64,000 nucleotides of DNA from a virus: positions 2,954 to 66,953 of the IMG/VR virus record IMGVR_UViG_3300046791_000269; one strand, given 5' to 3'. Positions 8,540 through 57,863 of this stretch are shown in pieces (within the stretch, counting starts at the first letter, position 1; the number at the start of each line of letters is the position of its first letter). Under the pieces are notes generated by a model. That model was not told the origin of the DNA. It worked only from the letters and a program-made list of their open reading frames with translations, and made no database searches. A program made the translations under genes and the position numbers.

Positions 8540-9157
8540 ATGAGTGCGCGAATAGTACTGCAATGCGTCCGCTGCTGCGCTGAGTTCAGCGTGTGGCCCC
8601 ACGAACTACGGAATGGGCGGCGCTTCTGCTCCAAGAATTGCGCGTACGGCGCTCGACTAGGCGAGGCCGGTAAAATTGACAGGCTACGCTCGCGATTTCT
8701 AAGGAGAGTGAACGCGGCGGGTCCCGTACTGCGTCAGGAACTCGGGCCTTGCCATGTATGGACTGGTCTGCGCGACAGGTACGGGTATGCCCAGATGTAT
8801 GCCTGCGGCAGAAGGCGTCCGGCTACCCACGTGGCCATCTATCTCGTCCGCGGCCATTGGCCGTCGGCATGCGCGCTTCACAAATGTGACGGCGGCCCGA
8901 TCGGGTGCGTCCGCGAGGACCACCTGTTCGAAGGGACCAAGGCCGACAATACGGCAGACATGCTCGCAAAGGGACGGGCATGGAAAGGGCGCGAGGTGGG
9001 GACAGGGCCTAAAAAATTAGACGCCGATCGCGTTCGTGAGATCCGCCGGTTGTTGGGTGGCGGCGTCACGCATCGAGCGATTGCCGCCCAGATGGGCATT
9101 GACAGAACAACCGTCTCGCAGGTGGCCCGCGGCCGCACGTGGCGGCACGTGATCTGA
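8540..9157 (+). CDS. HNH homing endonuclease, paralog of 6959-7528
   Basis: CHVWTG..YGY..THVAIY..HKCDGGPIGCVREDHLFEGTKADN. Confidence 0.85.
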   Translation: MSARIVLQCVRCCAEFSVWPHELRNGRRFCSKNCAYGARLGEAGKIDRLRSRFLRRVNAAGPVLRQELGPCHVWTGLRDRYGYAQMYACGRRRPATHVAIYLVRGHWPSACALHKCDGGPIGCVREDHLFEGTKADNTADMLAKGRAWKGREVGTGPKKLDADRVREIRRLLGGGVTHRAIAAQMGIDRTTVSQVARGRTWRHVI

Positions 9158-28496: not shown

Positions 28497-29360
28497 TCAG
28501 TCGATGAGCGAGGCCGGATCGATTCCGAGTGCCTCGAACTGCTGGAGTGTTCTGGTTGCGGGATCGCCGCTGAGCGGCTGTCCGCCGCCGCCACTTCCGG
28601 GGACACGCGGACCGGGTGGTCCGCCGCCGCCAGTGGGCTTGGGTGCTGCCCGAAAAAGCTTCATCCCTGGCTCTTCGAGAAGAACCGGGATCGCTTCCTC
28701 GAGCGCGATGTCCTCGTCTGCTTCCGGTGCGCCCTTGTACGGGGCGCGCTTCACGCGGAAGAGCGCGTTTCCCTGTTCGTCGACCTTCAGCCGCCCCTGA
28801 ACCAGGGTGAGATGATCGATCGCAATGTCGGTCATGCCGGGCGCGAGCTTGTCGGCGAGCCCCGAGCGGAGCTTCAGCTTCGCTGCGTCAAGCTTTCGAT
28901 TCGTCTCCGACTCGGCACGTAGGCGCGCCTCTTCCTTGCGCGCGGTCTCACTCGCCTCGAGCTTCGTAGCAAGTTCTTGGAGCTGCCGAGCTACAGCGTC
29001 GTCGCTGGCCGCCTTGCCGCCCTTTGCTTTGCCGCCGTCACCGCTGCCGCCGCCAGAACCGCTGTCGTCGGGCTTTGGGATGAGTTCGGTTACGACGGGG
29101 CCAATCAGGCCCTTCCAGTCGACGCCCTTGAGTTGCTCAGCAAGCGCAGGCTGGCGCTTGAGATGACTCGTGACGGCCGCGTTGACGGTCTGGCCAATGG
29201 CCGCGAGCTGCTCTTCCGAGAAGAGCGGCTTCGGCGGATCTCCACCGCCGCCATCGTCTCCAGCCTTGTCCAACAGGGGGAACGGTCGATTGAATAGGAG
29301 CATGCCAATCCTCTTCCGGCCGATGGCTGTGGCCGTTCGCCTTGTGGGGGCGTTACCCAT
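28497..29360 (-). CDS. Capsid scaffolding protein
   Basis: Gly-rich linkers plus a long charged coiled coil, located between the portal and capsid genes. Confidence 0.65.
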   Translation of the reverse strand: MGNAPTRRTATAIGRKRIGMLLFNRPFPLLDKAGDDGGGGDPPKPLFSEEQLAAIGQTVNAAVTSHLKRQPALAEQLKGVDWKGLIGPVVTELIPKPDDSGSGGGSGDGGKAKGGKAASDDAVARQLQELATKLEASETARKEEARLRAESETNRKLDAAKLKLRSGLADKLAPGMTDIAIDHLTLVQGRLKVDEQGNALFRVKRAPYKGAPEADEDIALEEAIPVLLEEPGMKLFRAAPKPTGGGGPPGPRVPGSGGGGQPLSGDPATRTLQQFEALGIDPASLID

Positions 29361-36835: not shown

Positions 36836-37027
36836 GCCGAAGTCGGGCGGGGTCAGAAAGTCCACGTCGGCTCGTCCGTATCCGCCGTCGAATGGCGCCT
36901 CAAGCCGAGGCAGTGCGTCGCCGTCGACGGGAATGCGCACGCAATGCCCGGCACCGTCCTTGCGGGTCTCGCGGCGCCGCCAGAACTTGCAGCTCCCGCA
37001 CCTCGGCTCCGGCCCGGAGATCATCAA
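36803..37027 (-). CDS. Small Cys-containing protein (74 aa). Its C-terminal 10 aa (CVLHEPKGTE) are encoded by the repeat
   Basis: Cys pairs CGSC..C; ATGA coupling. Confidence 0.4.
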   Translation of the reverse strand: MMISGPEPRCGSCKFWRRRETRKDGAGHCVRIPVDGDALPRLEAPFDGGYGRADVDFLTPPDFGCVLHEPKGTE

Positions 37028-37950
37028 GCCACCATCTCTCTTCCCCCAACCCGCGCTAGCCTCGCCATCGTCTCCGCCACGCCCTCAACGAGCGACCCGG
37101 TAAACGTCATTCCGGCCCGCTCGATCTTCTCTCGCGACACCACGTAGGAAAGCTGGTTCATGATGGGCGAGTCGACGAACACGGTCTCGAGCCTCGGTGC
37201 GTGTCGCCGGATGATCTCGACGATCTGCCCAACCGTCGCGTTTTCGGTCACAACGTTGTAGGTCTCGCCACCGAACAGGCCGCGCTCCACAGCGAACCAG
37301 ATCGCTCGGCACGCATCGAGGATGTCGAGATACGGCCGCCCCTGATCGAGCGCCGTCCGCCACACCGTGATCGGCTGCCCCGTGCTCGCCTGCCAACAGA
37401 ACCGGTTGACCGCCGTGTGAAAGCGCATGCCCGGTGAGATTCCGAAGATCGTTCCAAAGCGCAGGATACATGCGTCGTGTCCGCCGGCCCTGAGCATCTC
37501 CTCGCCCCTGGTCTTGCTCTCTGCGTAGGGGCTCTGTGGGACGACCGGAGACGCCTCGGTGACGATGCCCTCGTTCTGCCCGTAGACGCTCGTGGACGAG
37601 GCGAACACCGGACGGGCGCCGACTGCACGACAGGCCGCCGCCACTCGCTCGGTTCCCTGGAAGTTGACGCGCTCAACCTCAGCCGCTCGTCCAAAGCTCG
37701 TGGCCGCGTCCGTCAGGGCCGCGAGATGAACGACCGCCCCGCAGCCGTCGAGTAGCGGCTCTAGCTCACTCGTCACCACGTCGGCCTCGGTGAACTGAAA
37801 TCCGATACCGCGTGGCAAATCGAACAGCGAGCAGAGCCGCTGGGTCGAAAGGTTGTCGATGAGCCGGACCTCCTCGAATTGGCCGGGCTGGATCGTGCGG
37901 ATGAGCGCCGAGCCGATGTGGCCGAGTGCTCCAGTGATAGCGATTTTCAT
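37024..37950 (-). CDS. NAD-dependent sugar-nucleotide epimerase/dehydratase (SDR family)
   Basis: MKIAITGALGHIGSALIR Rossmann motif. Internal ATG of track ORF 37024-38496. Confidence 0.8.
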   Translation of the reverse strand: MKIAITGALGHIGSALIRTIQPGQFEEVRLIDNLSTQRLCSLFDLPRGIGFQFTEADVVTSELEPLLDGCGAVVHLAALTDAATSFGRAAEVERVNFQGTERVAAACRAVGARPVFASSTSVYGQNEGIVTEASPVVPQSPYAESKTRGEEMLRAGGHDACILRFGTIFGISPGMRFHTAVNRFCWQASTGQPITVWRTALDQGRPYLDILDACRAIWFAVERGLFGGETYNVVTENATVGQIVEIIRRHAPRLETVFVDSPIMNQLSYVVSREKIERAGMTFTGSLVEGVAETMARLARVGGREMVA

Positions 37951-38825
37951 GGGTGCTCCGTGTAGTGCGCGCGAGTGAGCTCGATACCCTCTGTGATCCA
38001 CACGGCCGGACGCCAGCCCGTGGCGTGGCGGAATGCCGACGTGTCCATCACCGCGTTCCGTGTGTCGATCGCAGCGAGTACGGTGTCCGGCGTTACGTGC
38101 TTGAAGTTGCCGCCCGCGGCAATCGCCGCCACCCTTGCGAATAGGTGAGCCGCTCCAGAGCCGACAACGAAGTGCCGCCCGTTCGTCGTGGCCTGGTTGG
38201 CCGCAGCGAGCATGAACGCCCGACACACGTCGTCGAGGTAGACGTAGTCCCGGGTCCAGTCTCCGGCGCCGTAAACCTGGACCGGTTCGCCCCTGGTTGA
38301 CTGTCGGATCATTCGGTTCAAGACGCCGCGCGTCGGGCCGCTCTCGCTCGTGCTTTGGCCGTAGACGTTGGCCAGTCGGAGCGTGCAGCCGCGTGCCCAT
38401 CCGCGCCGGCAGGCGTGCTCGAGCGCCATCTCGGCCATGCATTTGTGTAGGTCGTAGACGGTGAGCGGTGCGTCGGTCATGCCCTCGTGAATGCAAGACT
38501 CTGCCGGCACGCCAACCTGCGTGGCCGCGCCCGCGAATACGATGAACGGCTTTGGCTCGTGCCCGCGGAACTCCTCGATTAGCCCGTACATGGGCTCGAC
38601 GTTCGCGGACAGATCCTCGAGCGGGTCCTCGTCAGCGTCGCGCGCGCTCGTCTGCGCAGCAAGGTGGAAGACCACCTCGACATCCTTGTCTGGGCCAACA
38701 GCCGCCCCCGCCTCCACGAGCATTTGTACCAGACGCGAGCCGATGTACCCGCTTGCGCCCGTGACGGCGCAGCGTCGGCCCTTGAGCCACTCGATCGCGT
38801 TCAACGGATCTCCCTCTTCAGCCAA
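37947..38825 (-). CDS. NAD(P)-dependent SDR reductase/epimerase (RmlD-like size)
   Basis: VTGASGYIGSRL motif; about 292 aa. Confidence 0.75.
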   Translation of the reverse strand: MAEEGDPLNAIEWLKGRRCAVTGASGYIGSRLVQMLVEAGAAVGPDKDVEVVFHLAAQTSARDADEDPLEDLSANVEPMYGLIEEFRGHEPKPFIVFAGAATQVGVPAESCIHEGMTDAPLTVYDLHKCMAEMALEHACRRGWARGCTLRLANVYGQSTSESGPTRGVLNRMIRQSTRGEPVQVYGAGDWTRDYVYLDDVCRAFMLAAANQATTNGRHFVVGSGAAHLFARVAAIAAGGNFKHVTPDTVLAAIDTRNAVMDTSAFRHATGWRPAVWITEGIELTRAHYTEHP

Positions 38826-39253
38826 TCGTAGCCGATGGCTGGATCGTTGTGCGGGATCCGTAGCTCGTCGTCCGGGTTGTACTCATGCGAGGTCACATAC
38901 AGGAGCTCGCAGTCGGTGAGAGCCCGGCAGCCGTGCGCCACGTTCGTGGGCACCCTGACGAGCCGAGCCGGGTGGTCGTCGCCCATCAGGATCTCTTGCG
39001 TCTCCTTGTGCGTCGGGTTGCCGTCTCGCATGTCATGCATGACGAGGAGCAGGGCGCCGCGCACCACGTACCACCAATCGATCTGCCGGCGATGCAAGTG
39101 CCACGCCTTGATCGCGCCGGCCCGCATGCGCGAGTGGCTCAGTTGCCCGAAGCCCTCAGCGAAACACGCGTCGGTCTTTCGGACGATCTCGCGGAAAAAT
39201 CCCCGCTCGTCGTCGCGGGTGTCCAGGTTTCTGAGGACAACGCCGGAAATCAT
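38801..39253 (-). CDS. Cupin NDP-sugar 3,5-epimerase / 3,4-ketoisomerase (RmlC/FdtA-like)
   Basis: ERGFFRE..WHLHR His pair; about 150 aa cupin. Confidence 0.65.
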   Translation of the reverse strand: MISGVVLRNLDTRDDERGFFREIVRKTDACFAEGFGQLSHSRMRAGAIKAWHLHRRQIDWWYVVRGALLLVMHDMRDGNPTHKETQEILMGDDHPARLVRVPTNVAHGCRALTDCELLYVTSHEYNPDDELRIPHNDPAIGYDWLKREIR

Positions 39254-40431
39254 AGGATCTTGACCTCCGGCACGTGCGTGATGAACCGGCCACCGCGCTC
39301 GCGATAGGCTGTCTCTTTCGCCAGGATCTCAGCCGCGTGGTTCCAGGCGAACAGGAGCATGTAGTCCGGTGGGTCAGCGTAGAAACGCTCGGGCGAGACA
39401 ACCGGGATGTGGACGCCGGGAGAGAGCTTCCCTTGTTTCCCTGGCGTCGTGTCGGTGATGTACTCGATGAGTTCGGGTCCGATGCCGGCGTAGTTCGTGA
39501 CGGTCGTGCTCTTGGACGTTGCCCCGTAAGCTGCCACGCGCTTTCCGTCACTCTTGAGCGTCTCGAGCAGGCCGCGCAACGTTGCGCACTTCGCGTCGAC
39601 TCGTTCCTGGAATGCTGCGTAGGCCGCCTCGTCGCCAAGACCCAACACAACCTCCTTGCCGAGCAGGCGGAACACATCGTCTGAGGCCGCCCGCTCGCCC
39701 CGGCACGCCACGGTGTACCGCATTGAACCGCCGTGCGTCACTTGCCACTCCGCGTGGACAAGCTCGAGGCCGGCCGCGTTCGCCAGTGCCGCAACAGACG
39801 TGAGCGAGAAGTAGGACGCGTGCTCGTCGTAAATCTGATCGAACGAGCAAAGCCTCAGAATGTCCCCCAGGTAGGGTTCCTCGAAAATGAACAGGCCGGG
39901 CGGTTTCAAAAGGACAGCAACGCCCCGAAAGAAGTCCGCCGGGTCCGGGACGTGGCAGACGACGTTGGACGCGATCACGGCGTCGGCTTGCCCGTGCTCC
40001 TTGACCAGATCGCCGGCCCGCTCCTCCGTGAAGAACCCGCCCACGACGGTGAGGCCACGTTCACGCGCCGCATAGGCAACGTTGGCGCTCGGCTCGATGC
40101 CGAGATGCCGCCGACCCGCGAAATGCTGGAGCATGATCCCGTCGTTGCAGCCAATCTCAACGACGAGCCCACCCGATGGCGTGCGTGACTTCACCGACTC
40201 GGCGAACGCGGCGAAGTGCTTGGCCATGGCGGAACTCGACGAGGAGTAGAACGCATACTGATCGTGGAACATCCGCTCGGGTGGGACGAGGTCGAGCAGC
40301 TGGACCAGCTTGGTATCCGGGTCGAAACCCGCGCGGAGCGGAAAGCGGGGCTCGTCTGCGATCTCTGCCGCGTCGAGAAAGCCGTTGGCTATCGGCATCG
40401 GGCCGAGGTCGAGGAAGGGGCGGAGACTCAT
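39250..40431 (-). CDS. NDP-hexose C-methyltransferase-like SAM-dependent methyltransferase (TylC3/TcaB9 family)
   Basis: LDLGPMPIANGFL N-terminus, class I SAM fold (VVEIGCNDG), C-terminal C-methyltransferase-like domain. Start inside repeat copy 2. Confidence 0.7.
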   Translation of the reverse strand: MSLRPFLDLGPMPIANGFLDAAEIADEPRFPLRAGFDPDTKLVQLLDLVPPERMFHDQYAFYSSSSSAMAKHFAAFAESVKSRTPSGGLVVEIGCNDGIMLQHFAGRRHLGIEPSANVAYAARERGLTVVGGFFTEERAGDLVKEHGQADAVIASNVVCHVPDPADFFRGVAVLLKPPGLFIFEEPYLGDILRLCSFDQIYDEHASYFSLTSVAALANAAGLELVHAEWQVTHGGSMRYTVACRGERAASDDVFRLLGKEVVLGLGDEAAYAAFQERVDAKCATLRGLLETLKSDGKRVAAYGATSKSTTVTNYAGIGPELIEYITDTTPGKQGKLSPGVHIPVVSPERFYADPPDYMLLFAWNHAAEILAKETAYRERGGRFITHVPEVKIL

Positions 40432-40460
40432 TCCGTTCCTTTTGGTTCGTGCAAAACGCA
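40428..40460 (-). repeat. 33-bp direct repeat copy 2
   Basis: TCATTCCGTTCCTTTTGGTTCGTGCAAAACGCA. Confidence 0.9.
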
Positions 40461-41090
40461 CAGCTTCCCGATCGAGTACGCCAAATTCTCTCGCGCCTTT
40501 TGCTCCCACCGCTCGCGTCCGTAGTCGGTGAAATAGATGCGCGGCCGCTCGAGGAACTTCTGGAGAATGGCCGCCCGCCCTGCCGCGAATTGCTCGTCGC
40601 CGATGAAAGGCCACTCGAGCCGGACGAGCCGCTCGTAGTCGTCGAAAGCCTCACGGTCGGCGCCGAGGATGGCGATGTCAGCATCAGATAGGATCGCCTC
40701 GTCCGGTTTCAAGTCGTGCGCGTCGTGGGCCGTGGCCATGATGAGCCGCTCAACCGTTGCCGCGAGGTCTGGGCGGCCGGCAGTCGTGAGCATCTTCCGC
40801 GCGCAGTCCGCCGATGCGAACTCGTCATCAGGTAGTCCCTGCAAAACGAAGTCGTGATACCAGGCGGCCCAGCGCAGAGCGGCCGTCTCGTCGGGCGTTC
40901 CGTTCCACATCGGCGCCGCCGTGATCTGATCGATGCGCGTCAGAACCCACATGATGTGATGGAGCGTGTGGTAGTGGCGCCGTGCTCCGCTGTACGCCTG
41001 GACGAGCGAGAGGAAAACGGCGTTCCCGTTGCCCTGACAGTTGGTGTCGCCCCAGAGGCGGTTGAATTCGATGCGGGGGATGAGGTTCAC
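40428..41090 (-). CDS. HD-superfamily metal-dependent phosphohydrolase-like protein
   Basis: RHYHTLHH ... WYHDFV His/Asp motifs. C-terminus CVLHEPKGTE is encoded by repeat copy 2. Confidence 0.55.
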   Translation of the reverse strand: MNLIPRIEFNRLWGDTNCQGNGNAVFLSLVQAYSGARRHYHTLHHIMWVLTRIDQITAAPMWNGTPDETAALRWAAWYHDFVLQGLPDDEFASADCARKMLTTAGRPDLAATVERLIMATAHDAHDLKPDEAILSDADIAILGADREAFDDYERLVRLEWPFIGDEQFAAGRAAILQKFLERPRIYFTDYGRERWEQKARENLAYSIGKLCVLHEPKGTE

Positions 41091-42455: not shown

Positions 42456-42670
42456 TGCTCCACATCCCGCCCGTACGGACAGTCCGGATCTCCGCACGTC
42501 GGGCAGATCAGTCGCGTCTTTTTCTTCGCTGCAACGACAGGCTTCCCGCCGAGCAGCTTCGCGATGTTGTCGAGGGTCGAGTCAGTTGAGGGCGCCCCGT
42601 CCAGCGGCTTGAACGCCGGAGTCTCCGAAACTGACGGCTGGTCCAAAGTACGCTTCTTCTGATCCTGCAT
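42452..42670 (-). CDS. Small disordered protein with a C-terminal zinc ribbon (CPTCGDPDCPYG)
   Basis: Overlaps the AAA+ gene 3' end by 89 nt. Start is uncertain. Confidence 0.35.
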   Translation of the reverse strand: MQDQKKRTLDQPSVSETPAFKPLDGAPSTDSTLDNIAKLLGGKPVVAAKKKTRLICPTCGDPDCPYGRDVEQ

Positions 42671-44198
42671 GGAATGTCGCCTTTCGCACGTTGCTCGGCA
42701 CGCGGCCGATGCTCTCGATCTTCTCGAAAATAGCCCCCAGGTTGTTTACGTCCGCCATCTCGCGGAATGACTCGGTCACGGCTGCACGGATGTCGTCGGC
42801 CGTGATCCCGTTCGCCACGCCCTGCTCACGATCGCGCCGAATGGCACGAGACGCTGCACGGTTCACGAATCCCGAGATGACGGCGCCGCTCAGCATGTCA
42901 CGGAGGCACAGGACTTCACGCGGGCCTTCCTCAAATAGCAGCTCGTACAGCGCGAGCTTGTCCGAATACATGAGCTGAACGGCTACGGAGCCGAGCTCGC
43001 CGGCATCCCCTGGTCGGCCACGCATGGCCAGTCGGAAAACCTGCTCTGCCGATTCAGCATCGGGCCGCCCAACCTTCACGCGCCGATCGATGCGCCCGTC
43101 CCGCACGATGGCCGGGTCGAGCGAATCGGGCCGGTTTGTGCTCAGCATGACGAACGCTCCGGAGTCTTCCAGGCCGTCCATCTCGGCAAGGAAGCTCGGA
43201 ACTGTCATGGACGCCACGCCGAGACCGCTCCCGCTGCCACCGGTAGCCAGGAGTGCCTCGGCTTCGTCGATGAAGACGATCGCCGGCCGCCCAGTCTTCC
43301 GCTTGTGGTCGCGCGCGCGGTCGAAGATGCTCCGCACGGTGGCCTCGGACTCGCCGACCCACTTGCTCAGAACCTCGGCGCCCTTGACGTAGATGAAACC
43401 CGAGCCGTCGCCCATGGCGTTTGCGGCGGCCTTCCCGAGCATCGTTTTCCCGCAGCCGGGCGGGCCGTAGAGCAAGACGCCGCGTGATGGTCTCTGCCCG
43501 TAGCCAGCGTAAACGTCCGCGTACTTGGTGGGATACTCGATGGCCTCACGGAGCGCTTCCTTGGCCTCCTCGAGGCCGCCGATGTCGCCCCACGTGACCG
43601 TCTCGACGTTGACGGCAAAGCGGTTCTTGTCGCGGCCGAGGTTCTTCATCGCGACCATGCCAGACGGATCGAGCTGCACGCGGTCACCGGACTCGGGCAG
43701 CGGATCCATGCCAGCGGCAACAGACGCAGACGCCGACTCTTGCCCGCGCGAGAAGTAAACCTCGTGGCCGTCGATTCGATCGATCGTCACGATCGACCCG
43801 AATACAGCCGGCGTTTTCAACACGCCGATCGGCTGGCTCGTGGACATGAGCGTCCGCACCTGGCTGCCAATCTCGCCACCAGGAGGCAGGTTCACCTCGA
43901 GCGTTACGCCACGAACGGCAACGATGCCACGCCCGTCTTCCGTCTTGCCCGTAACAGTGCCGATCGCGCAGGGCTCTGAGTTGATCTTCTTGATGAAAGC
44001 GTCTTGCTGCTCGAGCTTCTGGCCGGCATCCCGGAGCGCCATCTCGAGTTGTTCCTCGCGGGACTGCGGAGGGCGAGGCGGCCCAAACGGGCTGGTTTGC
44101 ATCATTCGGTACATTTGCTCGCGCATCATTTCGCTTGGGTCTTCAATGATCCGCCCGTTCGTGATCCTGAACTCGCCTGTCGTGAAATCTTTTGCCAT
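42582..44198 (-). CDS. AAA+ ATPase of the proteasomal-ATPase type (ARC/Mpa/PAN-like unfoldase)
   Basis: N-terminal coiled coil plus OB-like region, then VLLYGPPGCGKTMLGKA (Walker A), IVFIDEAEAL (Walker B), second region of homology and a lid domain. ATG at 44198 with an AAGGGA RBS. Confidence 0.75.
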   Translation of the reverse strand: MAKDFTTGEFRITNGRIIEDPSEMMREQMYRMMQTSPFGPPRPPQSREEQLEMALRDAGQKLEQQDAFIKKINSEPCAIGTVTGKTEDGRGIVAVRGVTLEVNLPPGGEIGSQVRTLMSTSQPIGVLKTPAVFGSIVTIDRIDGHEVYFSRGQESASASVAAGMDPLPESGDRVQLDPSGMVAMKNLGRDKNRFAVNVETVTWGDIGGLEEAKEALREAIEYPTKYADVYAGYGQRPSRGVLLYGPPGCGKTMLGKAAANAMGDGSGFIYVKGAEVLSKWVGESEATVRSIFDRARDHKRKTGRPAIVFIDEAEALLATGGSGSGLGVASMTVPSFLAEMDGLEDSGAFVMLSTNRPDSLDPAIVRDGRIDRRVKVGRPDAESAEQVFRLAMRGRPGDAGELGSVAVQLMYSDKLALYELLFEEGPREVLCLRDMLSGAVISGFVNRAASRAIRRDREQGVANGITADDIRAAVTESFREMADVNNLGAIFEKIESIGRVPSNVRKATFHAGSEEAYFGPAVSFGDSGVQAAGRGALN

Positions 44199-44303
44199 CC
44201 GTTTTTCCCTTTTCTGTTCCGCTCTTGCTTTCTTGCCTGTTGATGTTCGCTTCGCCTGATTCCGTTGCCAGCGCTCGCGCGCTCGATCTTCCGCGCGTCT
44301 CAC

Positions 44304-50302: not shown

Positions 50303-50658
50303 TCGCTCCCCCTCCGCAAAACCCAGTCCTTCACGTCATCCACGTCGTAGAAGATCGGCCGGCCGAGGCGCTGCATTTCGAGAGCCTCGCCGCGCGCGCC
50401 TTTGGACGCTTCCCAGCCTGGGATGAGCAGGATCGCGTCGCAGGCACGGCATAGGGCGAGGGTGCCGGCTACATAGAAGTCATACCCCTGGAGAACCTCG
50501 TACTGCGGATGATCGGTGTTCTTGTGCGGGACGACCGGGTAAGCGCAGACGCGCGCGAGTTGTAGGCCGTAGTACTCCGCCGCCGCGATGTTCTTCTCAA
50601 CCTCGTGGCGCAGCGGAGCGGTGAATTTCCCGGCTACGTAGACTAGGGGCGGGGTCAT
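50299..50658 (-). CDS. Nucleoside 2-deoxyribosyltransferase-like protein (DUF4406-like)
   Basis: LVYVAGKF...RNI..AEYY-type fold signature. Internal ATG of track ORF. Confidence 0.5.
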   Translation of the reverse strand: MTPPLVYVAGKFTAPLRHEVEKNIAAAEYYGLQLARVCAYPVVPHKNTDHPQYEVLQGYDFYVAGTLALCRACDAILLIPGWEASKGARGEALEMQRLGRPIFYDVDDVKDWVLRRGSE

Positions 50659-51461
50659 TCGGCGGCCTTCGCTTGCGGCACCGGGAATTCGCGCGGCCAG
50701 TTGCCGGGGATTTCGGTGAGGTCGCCGCCCTTCTTGCTGCGGAGCCTGATCGGGTTTCCGCCGAACTGGGGCTTTGCCCCGAACTGCTTCACGAATGGCG
50801 GAACGCCAGCGATCCGGCACTGCTCGACCAAGCCCTGAACCCAGGCCAGATCCGTCGCGCGCGATCCGCCGCCACTCTCCCCGCCGACGATGACCCACGA
50901 AATACCATCGAGGTCCGCGGTGATGGGCCCAAGCATCGGCTCGCACGAAACGAACCGCACGCGAGCCGGCAGCCGCTTCAGGAACTTGACGCGCTTGTCC
51001 CAGCCGGCCTGATCGCCGGCGGTCGTTCCCATCCAGACGTTGTTGGGAAAGCCGTCGTTCATCCAGTGCGGCGGAACGAGCGCCGCCATGTTCTGCGGAC
51101 GCTTGGTAAGGAGCTGGTAGTCGAGCCAGGGCGTCTGCTCAATGAGCGGCCAGAACGCGGCGCGCACACGGTCCATCTCGCGCCCCACGTCGTCGTTGCG
51201 CCGCTCGCCGATGTCCATCATCGAGCCGCAGAACACGCGCGCTTTCTCGTCTGACAGGCACGCGTCCCTGTTCCATTTGAGCGGCAGGTCGAGGTGCTTC
51301 TGGCCGAAGAACCGCCGAGCACCCAGGCCCCACACGTCGTGGCCGGTACGCTTGGCAAACGCCCGCGCGTAGCAGTGATCGCACTCCGGGCCGTCCTCGA
51401 CGCAGCCCCACCAAAGGTTGTGCGTGTGTGTCGTCCACTCGATTTTCGTTTCAGCGCCCAT
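50655..51461 (-). CDS. Phage Gp37/Gp68 family protein (DUF5131)
   Basis: TKIEWT..NLWWGC..C..C N-terminus, typical of the family. Confidence 0.7.
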   Translation of the reverse strand: MGAETKIEWTTHTHNLWWGCVEDGPECDHCYARAFAKRTGHDVWGLGARRFFGQKHLDLPLKWNRDACLSDEKARVFCGSMMDIGERRNDDVGREMDRVRAAFWPLIEQTPWLDYQLLTKRPQNMAALVPPHWMNDGFPNNVWMGTTAGDQAGWDKRVKFLKRLPARVRFVSCEPMLGPITADLDGISWVIVGGESGGGSRATDLAWVQGLVEQCRIAGVPPFVKQFGAKPQFGGNPIRLRSKKGGDLTEIPGNWPREFPVPQAKAAE

Positions 51462-51651
51462 GATGGCCTCCGCTCATCCCGACAACCCGCCTAACCCATT
51501 CACCCCTCGCCCTCCGCTCCGACTCCGCCCGCTCGATCGCCGCAAGCCACGCCTGGTGCTCGACCGGCGGGATGACGTGGGCGATGACTGGGGAGGGCTT
51601 TCCGAGGCAGGTCGAAAAGCGCTGGTGGGGGAAGTGGATAATTTTGCTCAT
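51451..51651 (-). CDS. Hypothetical protein (66 aa)
   Basis: Internal ATG (MSKIIHFPHQ..). Confidence 0.35.
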   Translation of the reverse strand: MSKIIHFPHQRFSTCLGKPSPVIAHVIPPVEHQAWLAAIERAESERRARGEWVRRVVGMSGGHHGR

Positions 51652-51935
51652 TCCGCGGCCGCCGGTTTCTCTGCCGAGTGTCCGCACATCGGGCAGCCGA
51701 ACACGCCGATGGCAGCCCAGCCGGCGCGAAGTATTGTCAGCCCGCGCGAATCGAACTGAGCGCGGCGGATCAACCCCCTACGCTCAAGGGCCACGAGGTG
51801 ATCGCTGACGCCGTTCGTCGAGTTGATCCCAAGGTGCGTAGCTATTTCCCTGAGCGTCGGTGGGTAGCCGTGCTCTCGCCAAAACTCGGCGATGAAACGC
51901 AGCACCTGGACCTGTCGCTTGGTTACGTCTCTCAC
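51648..51935 (-). CDS. LexA-type winged-helix DNA-binding-domain protein lacking the S24 peptidase domain
   Basis: LTKRQVQVLRFI..GYPPTLREIATHLGINSTNGVSDHLVALERRGLIRR..SRGL matches the LexA N-terminal pattern. Only 95 aa. Confidence 0.7.
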   Translation of the reverse strand: MRDVTKRQVQVLRFIAEFWREHGYPPTLREIATHLGINSTNGVSDHLVALERRGLIRRAQFDSRGLTILRAGWAAIGVFGCPMCGHSAEKPAAAE

Positions 51936-52189
51936 AACTCCTCCATTTGCTTCTTCAAACTCGCGAACGCTTCACACGGCGCACGCTTGACTCCGTGCTT
52001 TTCGAGAATGTCGAGAATCCGCGGCGCCTCACTCTTTGGCGCCGTGAACTCGAACCCCCACCCGTCGATCTCTTCCGAGCGAACGTCGCGACCGATCGGC
52101 ACGTCCATGATCTCGCCGAACACCTCGTCGCTGATGCCTTGGACGAGGAACCGGACGAGGTCGGTGGTTTGGGCGAAGTTGGCGGTCAC
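51932..52189 (-). CDS. Hypothetical protein (85 aa)
   Basis: Track ORF. Confidence 0.4.
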   Translation of the reverse strand: MTANFAQTTDLVRFLVQGISDEVFGEIMDVPIGRDVRSEEIDGWGFEFTAPKSEAPRILDILEKHGVKRAPCEAFASLKKQMEEL

Positions 52190-53445
52190 GGGGACACCCC
52201 GTTCCCATCCGGCCCGTTCGCCCCAGCCGGAGCCACCGGTGAGGGAGCGCCGATTGGGCCTGTTAGACGCGGATCGATTGCAGTCCAGTCCTCAAGGCGA
52301 TGTAACGAATCTGCACACCCGTGGCCCCCAGTGGCGGCAAGTTGCGCGACGCAACTGGCGTAATTGCTCGCCTTTCCCTCTATCTCACCATCTGCCGAGC
52401 CTTTTAAGTCCCCCGCGTTTGCCGTTTCGCCAAGGGGCCGCGCTACAGTCTGTAACGTTTTTGCACTGACACCGAGCAGGTTCCCGAGCTCGTCGGGCTT
52501 CATCTGTCCGTAGACCGTCCGGACCATCGCATCGTTCTTGTGCCTGAGAAAGCGGCTCACATGGGACTGGTTTGCGCCGGCTGCGATGAGCCAGGACGAC
52601 GCGGTACGACGTAGGTCCTTCGGGGACAGGTGTGGGATACCAGCCCTGGCGCACGCTTCCCCGAGCGCCTTCGACGACCGCGGCCAGCTCACCGGCAGCC
52701 GCTCGAGGGCGTAGAGGAACAGGTCCTCGACGTGCTCGAGCACCGGAACCTCGGCGTCCCGGGTGAGCGTCTTGGTTCCCCTCACCCGCATTACCTTGCG
52801 CTTCGGGTCGTAGTCGCCGCGTACTGCGCGTTCGATGTCGCCAGCGTCGGCGCCTACCGAGATCGCGAGAGCTACCCAAGCCCGCTCGGTGTCGCTCGGG
52901 AGGGCCTCCCACAGCTTCGGGAGGTCGGACGGGAGCAGCGTCCTGGTCGTCGGGGTGTAGTTCGCGGAGAACGCCACCGGCATCACTTCGGCAATGTCGG
53001 CGGGGAACTGCCCGGCCCGCTTGGCGTACCTGAGGAGCTGGCGAAGGCAGGTGAGCTCCCTCTTGATGGTGTTGTTCTTGGCCCCCTCGTCCTGCCGTTG
53101 CCGGATGAACGAATCCACCCTCGTCGCTGATACGTCAGCAAGCCGGAACTCGTCGCCCCAGATGCGAACGAAGTGGCCGAGCTTCACCCCGTACATGTGG
53201 AGTGTGCCACCCGACCGCTCGCGTTCCTTGGTCTCGAGCGTCCGCACTACCCAGTCCCCGAAGCTCGCCGCAAGCGCGGCTGCGTAACTGGGGCTCGACG
53301 CGACCCGCTGCCGCTCAGCGTCCCAGAGGTACGCGGCTTCCGGGTCCGTACGCCCGGTCGATCGGGGAAGCCCGTCGATGGCATCGGTCCGGACCCAGAC
53401 AACAGCCCCGCGGCGGTAGAAACCTCTCTTGAGTTTCTTTCCCAT
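52186..53445 (-). CDS. int: Tyrosine integrase (site-specific recombinase); the C-terminal about 90 aa may be non-coding read-through
   Basis: SAM-like N-terminal domain; R..HxxR..Y region (LRHKNDAMVRTVYG). The 3' tail 52190-52480 has lower GC. Confidence 0.75.
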   Translation of the reverse strand: MGKKLKRGFYRRGAVVWVRTDAIDGLPRSTGRTDPEAAYLWDAERQRVASSPSYAAALAASFGDWVVRTLETKERERSGGTLHMYGVKLGHFVRIWGDEFRLADVSATRVDSFIRQRQDEGAKNNTIKRELTCLRQLLRYAKRAGQFPADIAEVMPVAFSANYTPTTRTLLPSDLPKLWEALPSDTERAWVALAISVGADAGDIERAVRGDYDPKRKVMRVRGTKTLTRDAEVPVLEHVEDLFLYALERLPVSWPRSSKALGEACARAGIPHLSPKDLRRTASSWLIAAGANQSHVSRFLRHKNDAMVRTVYGQMKPDELGNLLGVSAKTLQTVARPLGETANAGDLKGSADGEIEGKASNYASCVAQLAATGGHGCADSLHRLEDWTAIDPRLTGPIGAPSPVAPAGANGPDGNGVSP

Positions 53446-53588
53446 TTTTCTAAATCCTCCGGCCTGATTCGAAGCACACCCTTGCGCACGTAGAAGCCGC
53501 CAGCCTTGCGCATGAGCCGGGCAGCCTGGAGTCGCGTGATCCCGTAGCGCTCGACAAGGTCGGCGGGGGTTAGGCGGCGGTCGGTCAT
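53247..53588 (-). CDS. xis: Excisionase / helix-turn-helix DNA-binding protein (Xis/AlpA-like); only the N-terminal about 55 aa look real
   Basis: LTPADLVERYGITRLQAARLMRKAGGFYVRKGVLRIRPEDLEKW. Overlaps the int N-terminus in another frame. Confidence 0.5.
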   Translation of the reverse strand: MTDRRLTPADLVERYGITRLQAARLMRKAGGFYVRKGVLRIRPEDLEKWERNSREVSTAAGLLSGSGPMPSTGFPDRPGVRTRKPRTSGTLSGSGSRRAPVTQPRLRRASGTG

Positions 53589-53946
53589 CGGCGCATCCTC
53601 CCAGCCCGCACGTACAGGCTCACGCCTCGATGAACGGGCCCGCCCTGATGCTGGTGGAGCTCAACGCGCGCCAACACCCAGCCACTTCGGGTAAAGCGCC
53701 GGTGCCGCGTCCTGCCGATTGGAAGGCCGAGCGAAAGCACCTTGTCGGCCCAGCGACGCATCCCCGGCGTGACCCTGGCGGCCGGAACCCACCCGACGAG
53801 CCTCGCGAGCTTGCTCGGCGCCGGTTCGCTCTTTGGCGGCACCACCGGCACGGACCGGCGGATCTCCGCGAAGACGTCCGGCTCGACGTACCGAACGCCG
53901 TTCGCGGGCGGAACCAGGCCGGCGGCAAGGAGGGAGGCCGCGAGGA

Positions 53947-54171
53947 TCAAATCTTCTCCCCGTTCTTCACCCGCTCCGAAACCTGCGCGCGGATCGCGTC
54001 CTGGATCTCTTGCGTCGAGAACGTGATCGCTTGGTTGTCGGGCTCGGGCGCGGTCGTCTGGCTCGTCCACGTGAAGGAGCCCTTCGAATTTGTGAGCCGC
54101 CACACCAGCCAGACGAGCACGACCGTCCACACCAGGAGCAGGGAGAGAATTACGGCTTCGAGGTTCAACAT
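53947..54171 (-). CDS. Small membrane protein (74 aa)
   Basis: AVILSLLLVWTVVLVWLVW transmembrane helix. Confidence 0.4.
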   Translation of the reverse strand: MLNLEAVILSLLLVWTVVLVWLVWRLTNSKGSFTWTSQTTAPEPDNQAITFSTQEIQDAIRAQVSERVKNGEKI

Positions 54172-54421
54172 CTAGGAGCGCTCCTGAGTGAATTGATGGT
54201 CACGACCGACGGGATGAAAGACGTTCAAGTACGCGGCGACCAAAAGAGCGACGCCGATCAGCGCGAGAAGTTTCCAGGCCCTCACCGCCAGGCCCTACCG
54301 TTCGCGATCACGAAGTCTCGATCGGTGCGCGACACGGCCCTGAGCCCCGGCGCACGAACCCGTAGCGCGGCGAAGACGAATGCAAAGCCGGACAGGGCGA
54401 GGAGGTAGGCGGCGAGCATTA
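54171..54421 (-). other. Two unlisted small transmembrane-peptide ORFs (about 37 and about 48 aa)
   Basis: VRAWKLLALIGVALLVAAYL.. and MLAAYLLALSGFAFVFAAL.. read manually from the sequence. Confidence 0.3.
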
Positions 54422-55387
54422 CTTCCCAACCATCGCCGGGCTCATGATGAACTGCTGCCCCGCCGGAACCATCATCACGCTGACGTTCGGTGAGAGCTTT
54501 TGCGCGAAGATGTACTGTGTCAGTGCCGGGCTGATGCTCTTCGCCAGCTTCTCGTTCGCCTCGGCCTCTTTGGAAGCAAGAACTAGGTTCGCGTCGGCTT
54601 GCTTCGTTGCGTTGATGAGCACCGCATCCGCCTTGCCGCGCGCTTGCTCGATTGCCTGGTCCGCTCGGGCACGCTCAGCCGCAACCTTTTCCCGCTCGGC
54701 GAGCGCAAGCTGGCTCTGCGTCTGCTTCTCCTCGATCGCCGCCTGGAACTTCTGATCGAACGCGATGTTGTCGATCAGCAGGTCCCGAACGTCGATGCTG
54801 TCCGAGCTGAGTTCCCGCTGGAGTCTGGCACGAACGGCGCGGCGGATGTCCTCACGGTGTGGAGCGATGTCCACCGACCCGTACTTGACGATCTCGTCCT
54901 TGTGGGCCTGGAGAACCCGGGGCGCCACGAGAACCTCGAAGTAGTTCGCGCCAACCTCACGATAGAGCCGCTGAATGTGTGACGGTGAAACGTGGATGTT
55001 CAGCGTGGCATTGACGTAGACTTGCTGCGTCTCCTTGCTGAAACAGTGCAGCGTGTCATCGTAGTCAGCGGTGCCGTCGTCTTTCCTATGCATGGCGAAC
55101 TTGTGCCCGAGCACCTGGATCGACGCCTGCTCGACCGACTGCCACGGGAGAACCCACTGCATTCCTTCCGGGCGCTGACCGGCGATGGCGCCGAAAGACC
55201 GGACGAGTCCGACGTTGCCGGCGTCCACGCTGTTGTACGACGAAACGGAGGTGGCGATGATCAGACCCGCGAGGCCAACAAGGAGCGCCACGAACCGGTA
55301 GGGCTTTACGTCCTCGTCCTTGCCCATGATCCAAACGATGGCAGCGAGAGCGGCGGCGAGCGAAACGAACAGAATGATGAAGCCCAT
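54419..55387 (-). CDS. SPFH/Band-7 (stomatin/prohibitin/HflKC-like) membrane protein
   Basis: N-terminal transmembrane helix, SPFH core and a C-terminal Ala/Gln/Glu coiled coil. Internal ATG (MGFIILFVSL). Confidence 0.7.
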   Translation of the reverse strand: MGFIILFVSLAAALAAIVWIMGKDEDVKPYRFVALLVGLAGLIIATSVSSYNSVDAGNVGLVRSFGAIAGQRPEGMQWVLPWQSVEQASIQVLGHKFAMHRKDDGTADYDDTLHCFSKETQQVYVNATLNIHVSPSHIQRLYREVGANYFEVLVAPRVLQAHKDEIVKYGSVDIAPHREDIRRAVRARLQRELSSDSIDVRDLLIDNIAFDQKFQAAIEEKQTQSQLALAEREKVAAERARADQAIEQARGKADAVLINATKQADANLVLASKEAEANEKLAKSISPALTQYIFAQKLSPNVSVMMVPAGQQFIMSPAMVGK

Positions 55388-55391
55388 GTGT

Positions 55392-55526
55392 TTATTTCCC
55401 TTGTGTGAATGTCTCAGGAAGAATTGACGCTCGAGTGCACTCCCGCCCCGCCTCAAGCCTCCCGAGCTGGTACGAGAGGAATACGGCGAGGGCGGCAATC
55501 AGGCACAGGACGGCTCGGTAGATCAT
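55392..55526 (-). CDS. Small membrane peptide (44 aa)
   Basis: MIYRAVLCLIAALAVFLSY; ATGA overlap. Confidence 0.35.
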   Translation of the reverse strand: MIYRAVLCLIAALAVFLSYQLGRLEAGRECTRASILPETFTQGK

Positions 55527-55789
55527 CAGTTGCTCCTCAACTGCCGAATCACCCGGATAGCCTCGCGACGAACGGTCTCCTCGGCGCGGTAGGCGTCCAA
55601 CTCGAGCTGCATCTCGTACGCACGGCGGCGCTCCTCGTGCAGCTCCTCGACAACCTCGTCGCGGTTCTTCATCGCGTCGCGCATGCATTCGCGGGCCAGT
55701 CGCTCGTTCGCGCGCAGGTGGCGGGAGGCGCGGAGTTGCCTGGTGAGGGCGGCTCCGAGGAGAAGGCAAATGAGGGCTAGCGGCATCAT
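55526..55789 (-). CDS. Small membrane plus coiled-coil protein (87 aa)
   Basis: MMPLALICLLLGAALT transmembrane segment, then a charged helix. Confidence 0.4.
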   Translation of the reverse strand: MMPLALICLLLGAALTRQLRASRHLRANERLARECMRDAMKNRDEVVEELHEERRRAYEMQLELDAYRAEETVRREAIRVIRQLRSN

Positions 55790-56016
55790 TTGGGAAGCTC
55801 CACGATTCGCTTGGCAATGCGCGCTCGCTGGTTCTCATCGAAGTTTCGCAGAACGAAATGGACGGCGTCGGCAAGCGACGGGGAAATGTCCGTCTCTGCC
55901 AACAGCTCGCCGTCCGTCGTGTGGTACTGGCGAACCGCTCGGCAACGGTCGTCCGCACTGTCGCCCTCGCCGCGCGTGATCTCGCTCTCGATGACCCGGA
56001 TCAATCGCGGCATCAC
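55786..56016 (-). CDS. Hypothetical protein (76 aa)
   Basis: Track ORF. Confidence 0.4.
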   Translation of the reverse strand: MMPRLIRVIESEITRGEGDSADDRCRAVRQYHTTDGELLAETDISPSLADAVHFVLRNFDENQRARIAKRIVELPK

Positions 56017-56170
56017 GAGACCCCCAGTGACGCGCGTTCACTCGGCATCCGCACACGTGGATTCCGTTCAGCACGAGCGCCACGCTGAACATCGGTGCGC
56101 ATGACTTGCGCGACACGGTGGCGCCGGTCCGCGTATACGAGGCGCGATGCCCTAAAAAAAGTACTAAGGA

Positions 56171-56521
56171 TCATCCCGTATGCCTCCGTGATTGCGACGC
56201 TTCTTGCCTCTTGCGGCGAAGCTCCTCGAGTGCCCAACGTGGCGGCAGACACTTGGTCATCGAGGTATCGCGCCAGTGCCTCAAAGCGCCTTCCGTCACG
56301 CCGATGAGACGCGCCGCTTTCGACTGCTCGCCGATGCTCGCGACGCCACTAAGGAACAGCTCGCGCTCGAGTTCAGCTTTCGAGACGCGATCGTGATCGG
56401 CACGCAGCTTGCTGATGCGAAGATGAGTAGACGATGACGACGAACACTTGCGCAGCGGTCCCGACGCCGGAACGAACGGCGCCGCGAGTTGAGCGACGAG
56501 CTTGTCGATGCGATCGCTCAT
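56171..56521 (-). CDS. Putative HTH regulator (about 116 aa)
   Basis: KAARLIGVTEGALRHW helix-turn-helix-like segment. Confidence 0.4.
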   Translation of the reverse strand: MSDRIDKLVAQLAAPFVPASGPLRKCSSSSSTHLRISKLRADHDRVSKAELERELFLSGVASIGEQSKAARLIGVTEGALRHWRDTSMTKCLPPRWALEELRRKRQEASQSRRHTG

Positions 56522-56823
56522 CGCGCACCACCGTTCTTGTGCGTGACGACGATCCGGCACAGGTGTCGGATGAACGGGACGCGCAGTCGTTGCGATCGCA
56601 ACACCGTGTCCGAGTTGACGGGAACTTTCCCCGAAACCCAGCGCTGGACGGTGCTAACAGAAATGTCCATCGATCTCGCGGCCATTGCCTGCGAAAATCG
56701 AGTTGTCCCCAGGGCGTACGCAATAGATCGCAGCGTCCATGCTTGGGGTATTTCACCCCTGACATTCTTCGGCCTTGCGGCGCGACGGTGCGTCTTGCTA
56801 CGTTCCCGTGTTCTACTCATCAC
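56518..56823 (-). CDS. HTH DNA-binding regulator (101 aa)
   Basis: MAARSMDISVSTVQRWVSGK. Confidence 0.45.
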   Translation of the reverse strand: MMSRTRERSKTHRRAARPKNVRGEIPQAWTLRSIAYALGTTRFSQAMAARSMDISVSTVQRWVSGKVPVNSDTVLRSQRLRVPFIRHLCRIVVTHKNGGAR

Positions 56824-56917
56824 AACTCAGGGGCTTTAGATGGGATTCGCGGAAATCATTGCGGCGAGATACGAACTGGACAGGCTGAGGGTAGAGCGAC
56901 AACAGGGGCGGCCGGAC

Positions 56918-57151
56918 TCACGCGGCTGGCTTGTTGGCGGAATGGTCGGGATTCGGGACTGGCTCGTCCCACCAGTGCATTGGGATGCGCTTGACGCTCC
57001 AGAACCGCTTTCGGACGTCCATGCCGGGGACGCGCTCCCCGCTGAGGATCCGCCCGAGGTACCCTTGGTCCACCTCGACGAGTTCCGCGAGACGCGCCTT
57101 CGAGCCGCGGGCCGCGACAGACCTGCTGAGTTTTCGAGCCGCACGGTTCAC
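56918..57151 (-). CDS. Cro-like XRE-family HTH regulator, first gene of the leftward operon, probably leaderless
   Basis: KARLAELVEVDQGYLGRILSGERVPG HTH motif. GTG start at 57151 lies 7 nt downstream of the -10 TAGACT. Confidence 0.55.
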   Translation of the reverse strand: MNRAARKLSRSVAARGSKARLAELVEVDQGYLGRILSGERVPGMDVRKRFWSVKRIPMHWWDEPVPNPDHSANKPAA

Positions 57152-57158
57152 GATGGGC

Positions 57159-57187
57159 AGTCTATGCCCCTAGGGCAACTTGTCAAG
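57159..57187 (-). promoter_or_regulatory. Leftward early promoter/operator (PL/OL-like): -35 TTGACA (57186-57181), 16-nt spacer, -10 TAGACT; operator 14-mer CTTGACAAGTTGCC plus CTAGGG
   Basis: Read directly. Twin of the site at 57642-57671 in inverted orientation. Confidence 0.55.
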
Positions 57188-57220
57188 AGGGCAAGCCATG
57201 GACGGTGGCAAGCTAGCGAA

Positions 57221-57586
57221 ATGCCAAGCGCAAAAACTTCTCGCGGCGGTGGCGGCGTGAAGGAAATTGGTCCGCGCTTTCGGGTTGCGAGGAAACGGCT
57301 AGGGCTGACGCAGACCGATTTTTGCGCCCCGCTCGACCTCAGCGAGACCGCGCTTTCCCGCTTCGAGACCGGCAAGCGCGGCATCCAGAGCGACAAGCTG
57401 CTCGCCCTTCTGCGTATCGCCGCCGAGCGCGGCATGAATGTGGACGGTTTCGTCCTACGTGGTCAGGGCGAACCAGTGCGTGCGGGGTCGGAGTCCGAGA
57501 TGCTTGAACGCATCCTGAAGACCGTGGAGGGCCTGCGACCCGATGAAGAAGCTCCACACGCGGCCCCCAGGCGCGCCAGCAAATGA
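57221..57586 (+). CDS. XRE-family HTH repressor candidate (CI-like), lacking a peptidase domain
   Basis: RKRLGLTQTDFCAPLDLSETALSRFETGKRGIQSDKLLALLRIA HTH motif. Located between the two operator copies. Start is uncertain (57164 or 57221). Confidence 0.6.
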   Translation: MPSAKTSRGGGGVKEIGPRFRVARKRLGLTQTDFCAPLDLSETALSRFETGKRGIQSDKLLALLRIAAERGMNVDGFVLRGQGEPVRAGSESEMLERILKTVEGLRPDEEAPHAAPRRASK

Positions 57587-57641
57587 GAGGCTAATAGTTT
57601 CGGGCACATAGGAAAAATCGACGCGGGGCCAACGTTGCCGC

Positions 57642-57671
57642 CTTGACAAGTTGCCGCTAGGGCAATATGGT
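57642..57671 (+). promoter_or_regulatory. Rightward early promoter/operator (PR/OR-like): TTGACA-17 nt-TATGGT with the operator CTTGACAAGTTGCC-G-CTAGGG overlapping the -35 and spacer
   Basis: Near-consensus σ70 hexamers. The ATG at 57678 lies at the predicted transcription start site, so the first gene is leaderless. Confidence 0.6.
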
Positions 57672-57677
57672 CTGGGC

Positions 57678-57863
57678 ATGGTTACCGCGCTCACCAAAGC
57701 CCGCATCCGAACGACCCTCATCCTGAACGGCACTGAGCTCCCGAGCTGCTTCGCCGACAGCACCATCTCGGCGCTCTGCAACGTGCTCGACCGCAACGCT
57801 GACAAGCGGACGGTCCGCAGGCTCAGCGGCAAGGTCGCACGCATCACGACGGTGTCGCCGTGA
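57678..57863 (+). CDS. First rightward early gene (61 aa), probably leaderless
   Basis: ATG 7 nt after the -10; internal start of track ORF 57651-57863. Confidence 0.45.
   Translation: MVTALTKARIRTTLILNGTELPSCFADSTISALCNVLDRNADKRTVRRLSGKVARITTVSP

Follow-up and report, generated by a model that had tools for sequence, protein, structure and literature searches.

A stand-alone LexA-type DNA-binding protein without a peptidase domain, encoded in the early operon of a temperate tailed phage

Locus and gene

We analysed a 64,000-nucleotide stretch of viral DNA, positions 2,954 to 66,953 of the IMG/VR record IMGVR_UViG_3300046791_000269 (the window, to which all coordinates refer), which derives from a tailed temperate phage of 64% GC, and focused on an open reading frame (ORF) of its minus strand, 51648..51935, with a GTG start and a TGA stop, that encodes a LexA-type protein of 95 amino acids (aa) with the sequence MRDVTKRQVQVLRFIAEFWREHGYPPTLREIATHLGINSTNGVSDHLVALERRGLIRRAQFDSRGLTILRAGWAAIGVFGCPMCGHSAEKPAAAE. 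An earlier note, made from the letters of this DNA alone, had described the product as a LexA DNA-binding domain without the autocleavage domain, which would occupy SOS boxes and could uncouple host SOS genes or prophage induction from RecA, or act as a decoy. The ORF is a real gene: it is preceded by a ribosome-binding site, its start aligns with the start of cellular LexAs, and the protein has thousands of homologues; furthermore, the same protein and the same DNA are also present in an independent assembly record, and SRR26075152 contains the identical contig. The gene and its parts are as follows:

51648..51935 (-), gene of a stand-alone LexA-type DNA-binding protein (ORF list, Pfam, PHROG, independent assembly record)
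51726..51935 (-), winged helix-turn-helix, residues 1-70, with three helices and a beta-hairpin wing (AlphaFold, Foldseek)
51795..51821 (-), recognition helix STNGVSDHL, residues 39-47 (S39-L47) (sequence comparison)
51678..51722 (-), conserved C-terminal tail GWAAIGVFGCPMCGH, residues 72-86, with the subfamily motif GW..LG..CPxCG (alignment)
51938..51944 (-), Shine-Dalgarno-like GGAGGAG, 2 nt 5' of the GTG and within the end of orf85 (sequence reading)

A LexA DNA-binding domain alone

Residues 1-65 of the protein aligned to the whole Pfam LexA_DNA_bind profile (PF01726, positions 1-65 of 65; E 1.3e-21, 76.6 bits, cut-off 23.7), which confirms the likeness to the LexA N-terminal winged helix claimed in the earlier note. 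All other winged-helix Pfam families scored under threshold, including MarR_2 (25.3 versus 27) and MarR (18.0 versus 24.6), and membership of the MarR family was discarded as generic winged-helix similarity. A phmmer search of the PDB matched exclusively LexA N-terminal domains (E 4e-12 to 2e-9). Two AlphaFold models, with a predicted local distance difference test score (pLDDT) of 86.5 and 87.0, folded residues 1-75 as a winged helix-turn-helix and left the tail poorly defined; the secondary structure elements (helices 6-22, 28-35 and 40-52, strands 56-58 and 66-68) were modelled with pLDDT above 90. The top Foldseek matches were the LexA structures 3jso, 3k2z and 1lea, the best being E. coli LexA-DNA complexes with a root-mean-square deviation of 0.9-1.0 Å over 68-69 columns (1.0 Å over 68 for 3jso).

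The S24 domain with its Ser/Lys dyad and the Ala-Gly cleavage site is absent, as the protein stops at residue 95. When the C-terminal domains of three true LexAs were compared by tblastn with all six frames of the 64-kb window, the best match had an E value of 0.14 over 14 residues; a frameshifted or split LexA is therefore excluded, and the downstream DNA is filled by orf66 and a DUF5131 gene. Against the NCBIfam LexA equivalog TIGR00498, the protein reached 68.1 bits (cut-off 110.95) and covered profile positions 1-70 of 203 only, while the control P0100, a genuine LexA, scored 230.8 bits. By family definition it is therefore not a LexA, and amounts to a LexA DNA-binding domain by itself. 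Since both the cleavage site and the S24 catalytic domain are lacking, RecA-stimulated self-cleavage cannot inactivate this protein. The missing autocleavage domain and the non-cleavable nature put forward in the earlier note are thus upheld, and the downstream peptidase that it considered a frameshift might conceal does not exist in the window.

Recognition helix and likely specificity

The recognition helix STNGVSDHL is identical in P0100 and differs by one residue in P0047 and P0091, all three being cellular LexAs that carry S24 domains; DNA-binding domain identity to cellular LexAs was 56-57% (57% to P0100). The settings of P0100, beside a Ser/Thr kinase gene, and of P0047, beside an NADH dehydrogenase operon, are of chromosomal type. 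In the lexA promoters of both, (T)GTTCAGC stands about 10 nt after TTGACA, and the Myxococcus xanthus lexA promoter, whose SOS box is CTRHAMRYBYGTTCAGS, has the same layout (PMC9705874). The E. coli LexA helix, SPNAAEEHL, differs from STNGVSDHL, and hence the CTGT-N8-ACAG box would not be expected as a target. Among viral contigs, STNGVxDHL was found in high-GC phages and SPNAAxDHL in phages of about 50% GC; this split of helix type by phage GC suggests that the phage proteins track the LexA helices of their probable host groups. Since the helix is identical to that of LexAs with GTTCAG-box promoters, binding of host LexA operators is plausible, and it is likewise plausible that many stand-alone proteins, including the 95-aa one, still read LexA-type operators.

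Regarding the host, the best match of the terminase among GTDB genomes was a 'Deltaproteobacteria' metagenome-assembled genome at 38% identity; in cultured phages, terminase identity was at most 31%, and the capsid matched just an uncultured virus (54%).

Position in the early operon

The gene lies in a leftward block whose regulatory region and nearest members are the following:

57643..57671 (+), PL-like promoter TTGACA-17-TATGGT, divergent from the PR-like site (promoter scan)
57221..57586 (+), CI-like XRE-type gene (HTH_31), 121 aa, between the PR-like and PL-like promoters, without S24
57159..57186 (-), PR-like promoter TTGACA-16-TAGACT, from which the early transcript covering the LexA-like gene presumably starts (promoter scan)
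53247..53588 (-), xis-like HTH_17 ORF, a weak match of 21 bits, under cut-off
52186..53445 (-), tyrosine integrase gene (int), upstream in the same operon (Pfam Phage_int_SAM_1 and Phage_integrase)
51932..52189 (-), orf85, 85 aa, its stop overlapping the LexA-like start (GTGA) and its start overlapping the int stop
51451..51651 (-), orf66, 66 aa, its start sharing 4 bp with the LexA-like stop (called as a gene on the identical contig L002)
50655..51461 (-), DUF5131 gene, downstream of orf66 with an 11-bp overlap (Pfam)

The block begins with Cro-like and CII-like helix-turn-helix genes, followed by small ORFs, an SPFH-like protein, small membrane proteins and orf181; it continues through the xis-like ORF, int, orf85, the LexA-like gene, orf66 and DUF5131, followed by DUF4406, VRR-NUC and N6/N4 methylase genes and the replication genes (DnaB-like helicase, primase zinc finger and DnaT-like protein). 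The structural module elsewhere in the window comprises a terminase-sized ORF, an SU10-like capsid, a tape measure and baseplate J. From xis-like to LexA-like gene, successive minus-strand genes share overlapping stop and start codons, and tightly packed genes of the same strand fill the approximately 5.3 kb between the PR-like promoter and the LexA-like gene. A scan of 51300-57800 with the E. coli-type sigma-70 consensus returned the PR-like and PL-like sites as the only promoter-like sequences. A terminator-like match at 54251-54264 was discarded, as it falls inside the small membrane-protein ORFs. The LexA-like gene, with codon overlaps to its neighbours and downstream of the PR-like promoter, thus belongs to a co-directional early operon, and early expression after infection or induction can be inferred from this continuous same-strand block.

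The phage has a switch of its own. A 30-nt inverted repeat, CTTGACAAGTTGCC..CTAGGGCA, is common to the PR-like and PL-like promoters (57140-57215 and 57620-57695) and probably contains their operators. As the CI-like repressor between them is devoid of S24, induction cannot take place through classical CI autocleavage. Given this separate CI/Cro-type switch, the LexA-like gene is not the lysogeny repressor of the phage; nor does it resemble lambda CI, having no S24 domain and lying some 5.3 kb inside an operon of lytic direction. The suggestion of the earlier note that it might uncouple prophage induction as a prophage repressor is consequently unlikely.

The same note had placed the gene adjacent to int and xis; it is indeed in the same operon and near int, but orf85 intervenes, and the xis-like match is weak. 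This xis-like ORF (53247-53588, -) shares 199 nt with the integrase ORF (52186-53445, -), and no non-coding stretch able to hold attP adjoins int. We found no match for orf85 in Pfam, PHROG, NCBIfam or PADLOC and no family match for orf66 in PHROG, NCBIfam or PADLOC, and PADLOC gave no defence-system association for the LexA-like gene and its small neighbours. The DUF5131 product (50655-51461, -) matched the candidate defence families PDC-M41B and PDC-M30B (E 7.5e-45).

Candidate target sites in the window

Eleven motif classes were scanned across the window: ten types of SOS box, among them gamma/beta, Gram-positive, alpha, Myxococcus, Geobacter, cyanobacterial, Xanthomonas, Verrucomicrobia and Bdellovibrio, and the operator of GIL01 gp6, a phage regulator considered in the Discussion. 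None occurred above chance; the search for phage SOS boxes advised in the earlier note therefore gave no positive result. In particular, the scans revealed no LexA-type boxes at the PR-like and PL-like promoters. Perfect palindromes did not recur anywhere in the window beyond chance pairs, the early-late junction at 34.6-35.4 kb included, and GTTCAG hexamers were not enriched (34 observed, 30 +/- 6 expected).

Two individual matches fell within HNH genes. The Verrucomicrobia-type perfect palindrome TGTTCCTTGGAACA at 7305 was judged coincidental, because this stretch of an HNH endonuclease gene codes for its conserved HLFLGT motif, and the sole window match to the gp6-type CACA-N2-TGTG, at 8879, is also within an HNH gene. 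The phage has two such paralogous HNH-type endonuclease genes, 6959-7528 (+) and 8540-9157 (+), situated amid minus-strand tail-fibre and baseplate genes, the palindrome belonging to the first of them (6959-7528, +).

One site in the early operon was retained as a candidate binding site only:

56066..56090 (no strand), perfect everted dyad GTTCAGC-N11-GCTGAAC

Within the window, Myxococcus-type LexA half-sites form an intergenic pair only in this dyad, which lies within the 154-bp gap between a CII/Cro-like gene and the next early gene. Its half-site is identical to the arm that Myxococcus-type LexA boxes conserve, but its orientation is everted. The 15-nt GATGTTCAGCGTGGC, which includes one arm of the dyad, recurs inverted at 54995-55009 inside the SPFH-like gene. 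As an intrinsic terminator the dyad was rejected, the RNA hairpin being of 10 bp without a U-tract and with an ordinary regional folding energy. The everted pattern GTTCAG-N13-CTGAAC with up to two mismatches, which was chosen post hoc, occurred 7 times against 2.2 expected; 6 of these 7 matches are imperfect (1-2 mismatches) and inside called ORFs.

Relatives of the protein

The protein matched the PHROG families 3502, 362 ('transcriptional repressor') and 24920, and corresponds to a truncated LexA of phage type, that is, a small, phage-encoded protein with a single LexA_DNA_bind domain and without S24. A tblastn search returned 77 phage records, including SfII gp44, SfV orf42, mEp460, cdtI, many Stx2 phages and the Bacillus phages 11143 and Wrath, 'LexA DNA binding domain protein' being a frequent annotation among them. 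In SfII, a phage with a cI, cro, cII and Q of its own, the gene is flanked by dam and rusA within the nin-like region; in the Edwardsiella phage EPP-1 the LexA-domain gene is near rusA, in an uncultured podovirus (MW202482, also among the nin-like examples) it adjoins a methyltransferase gene, and in Bacillus phage 11143 a site-specific recombinase gene lies immediately 5' of it.

Searched exhaustively with HMMER, 1.8 billion representatives yielded 16,011 matches at E <= 1e-3, and the architectures of the 150 best were classified as follows:

With S24 domain (true LexA), 7 of the 150
Tandem double-domain proteins of about 160 aa, 28 of the 150, including P0017 (confirmed) and P0018
Short proteins with a C-terminal CxxC tail, 22 of the 150
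Other short proteins, 69 of the 150
Other fusions, 24 of the 150, for instance P0071, with a T5orf172/MUG113 nuclease-like domain

Judging from these sequences, the winged helix of LexA is a mobile module that occurs in several architectures. Of the 80 best viral loci in IMG/VR, 74 encode relatives of at most 160 aa, and abutting same-strand neighbours occur on both sides in 48 of 57 non-redundant viral loci. The rarity implied in the earlier note is thus contradicted by these loci and by the 16,011 homologues, as stand-alone LexA domains are common in phages and, by sequence, among the commoner small regulators of temperate phages. Synteny with int, orf85 or orf66 was absent among the 80 best viral loci, so that the vicinity of int, named in that note, is not a conserved trait.

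C-terminal tail

LexA dimerises through its C-terminal domain, the part that is absent here. The relatives seem to replace the lost dimerisation in several ways, namely tandem domains, helical tails and the GW..LG..CPxCG tail, and the 28 tandem and 22 CxxC-tailed proteins among the 150 best matches suggest that two DNA-binding domains are needed. Some short CxxC-tailed relatives carry two CxxC motifs, which suggests that the tail binds metal; given the single CxxC per chain of the 95-aa protein, a zinc site shared by two subunits is an attractive guess.

Other features of the phage

Several further features of the window were recorded. Between the replication and late genes, 37024-40614 (-) encodes an NAD-dependent epimerase/dehydratase and a C-methyltransferase with a zinc-binding domain, and a phosphohydrolase lies at 40428-41090; these sugar-nucleotide-type enzymes may reflect surface-glycan or DNA modification. 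An AAA ATPase (42582-44303, -) matched the PADLOC IetA and TRIP13 models (E 1e-19). ARAGORN called a tRNA-Ser(cga) at 29183-29258 (+), inside a well-scoring structural gene (28497-29360, -), and this call probably represents a false positive or else a feature that overlaps the gene. In the tail-fibre region, 5436-6941 (-) encodes a 501-aa protein without a Pfam match, whose C-terminal half is very rich in glycine (long GGxGG runs).

Discussion

Our literature search found GIL01 gp6 as the sole characterised member of this family, and nothing on the stand-alone LexA domains of lambdoid or high-GC phages. This 66-aa truncated LexA homologue is produced from the early operon of a Bacillus thuringiensis tectivirus; it binds GaCACAnnTGTGaC, overlapping the -35 of the late promoter P3, and thereby activates P3, for which Lys38 of its recognition helix is essential (PMC6182141). 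Like gp6, the 95-aa protein is a single LexA_DNA_bind winged helix without S24 encoded among phage early genes; unlike gp6, which has no tail, it carries the CPxCG tail and belongs to a tailed, integrase-bearing phage. Moreover, the traits specific to gp6, Lys38 and a GaCACAnnTGTGaC operator at a late promoter, are absent from the protein and the window, respectively. The LexA-domain proteins of lambdoid phages (SfII gp44, SfV orf42, mEp460, Stx2 and cdtI) are similarly short, stand-alone and encoded in early or nin-like operons, near DNA methylase and junction nuclease genes, but they share 35% identity with it, have the E. coli-like helix SVNAAVEHL or SPNAAxDHL, and end in a helical tail instead of CPxCG. 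In comparison with cellular LexAs of the GTTCAG-box class, the protein lacks the linker cleavage site and S24, it is phage-borne, and by the sigma-70 scan its gene is not autoregulated from a promoter of its own. By functional analogy, it may be likened to non-cleavable LexA mutants and to the N-terminal fragment left by LexA cleavage, whose LexA DNA-binding activity RecA cannot switch off, although the mutants keep the dimerising C-terminal domain. The natural fragment, a weak DNA binder that ClpXP and Lon degrade (PMC3159453), differs from the 95-aa protein, which has a different, conserved tail. Finally, GIL01 gp7 is another phage factor that modulates the host LexA regulon, but it binds host LexA and is not a DNA-binding LexA homologue. 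The phage family as such is already known; the CPxCG-tailed subgroup with a host-identical helix is a modestly new variant of it.

From these sequence comparisons, we tentatively favour the proposal, whose chances we rate as just short of even, that the protein serves as a RecA-proof surrogate of LexA, which works at LexA boxes of the host type while the phage develops lytically. It would be made early, after infection or induction, from the PR-like transcript, and would bind host LexA operators through its cellular-type recognition helix, with the GW..LG..CPxCG tail supplying dimerisation, possibly via a zinc site between two subunits. During host LexA destruction or lytic growth, such a damage-insensitive surrogate would keep LexA-controlled promoters shut, both those of host SOS genes and those of LexA-controlled rival mobile elements. 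A bolder version is doubtful: that CPxCG-tailed proteins form a distinct class of zinc-hook-like, shared-site dimers which would recognise half-sites in a geometry that LexA does not have, such as that of the everted dyad GTTCAGC-N11-GCTGAAC (56066-56090), and would re-silence the host SOS regulon and LexA-controlled competitor prophages early in lytic growth and in a RecA-proof manner.

Several observations weigh against the surrogate proposal. Cleavage lowers the affinity of LexA for DNA, its isolated N-terminal domain binds poorly, and the cleavage fragments are subsequently degraded (PMC3159453). That the GW..LG..CPxCG tail may stand in for the lost dimerisation domain is a conjecture, and the tail was modelled in the monomer at pLDDT 50-65, with no confident fold from either alignment. 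The identity of the helix may merely reflect recent capture from a host lexA. An internal promoter could escape a sigma-70 scan based on the E. coli consensus. In addition, the characterised relative gp6 binds a different palindrome and activates transcription (PMC6182141); the decoy role at SOS boxes proposed in the earlier note loses force in the same way, given that this sole characterised relative activates phage late genes at an operator of its own.

The example of gp6 leads to a rather unlikely, though still credible, alternative, in which the protein is a phage-specific regulator that recognises an operator of its own phage and times transcription, for instance by late-operon activation or early-gene shut-off, with no role at host SOS boxes. 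In line with it, gp6 also consists of LexA_DNA_bind alone (E 7.9e-14), is an early-operon product and activates P3 at GaCACAnnTGTGaC; the LexA-like gene is likewise in an early operon, upstream of the late genes, and this operon contains the perfect intergenic dyad of LexA-type half-sites at 56066-56090. However, gp6 has a diverged helix (SHKTAHRYL, with K38 essential) while the 95-aa protein keeps the cellular one, BLASTP gives no alignment between the two, the window shows neither a recurrent palindrome, even at the early-late junction, nor an excess of GTTCAG hexamers, and the lambdoid phages with homologues already use Q for late control. The translational coupling of int, orf85 and the LexA-like gene, together with the recombinase immediately upstream of the LexA-domain gene in Bacillus phage 11143, could instead indicate an accessory of the recombination module, co-translated with int and orf85 and serving as an architectural or DNA-binding partner or as one that regulates integrase and excision; we consider this improbable, since the int/orf85/orf66 synteny is missing from the 80 viral loci, SfII, EPP-1 and MW202482 have dam or another methylase and rusA as the neighbours, within nin-like regions, and a separate xis-like HTH_17 gene already precedes int.

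It is also quite improbable that the protein is expressed in the lysogen as a repressor or decoy that keeps the prophage or the host's SOS regulon shut down, with RecA-independent induction. Such a role would agree with its inability to be cleaved and with a CI-like repressor (121 aa, HTH_31) that has no S24, so that induction needs another route; but the gene is deep in a packed lytic operon, about 5.3 kb downstream of the PR-like promoter and without a promoter-like site close to it, the phage has a complete CI-like/Cro-like switch, including shared operators, at another place, no LexA-type boxes occur at the PR-like and PL-like promoters, and relatives are operon-embedded in 48 of 57 loci. 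The short length of the gene, its low codon-usage score (10.5) and the loss of the C-terminal domain might still recall a non-functional remnant of a captured host lexA, against which stand the intact ribosome-binding site and reading frame, the conservation of every core domain position and of the subfamily tail, the thousands of similar stand-alone proteins, and the absence of any S24 remnant downstream; this last reading is highly improbable.

A single locus of this kind is in itself no surprise. The family has thousands of homologues, most close relatives are without a peptidase, and yet function is known for gp6 alone; the unaltered cellular LexA helix kept by the 95-aa protein, and by the high-GC group that it represents, makes the hypothesis of RecA-proof re-repression directly testable. 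If the surrogate proposal is false, the family would more likely be a toolbox of LexA-derived, phage-specific regulators such as gp6. If it is true, phages would have one more way of rewiring the SOS response, with a bearing on prophage-prophage competition, mutagenesis and antibiotic-induced induction.

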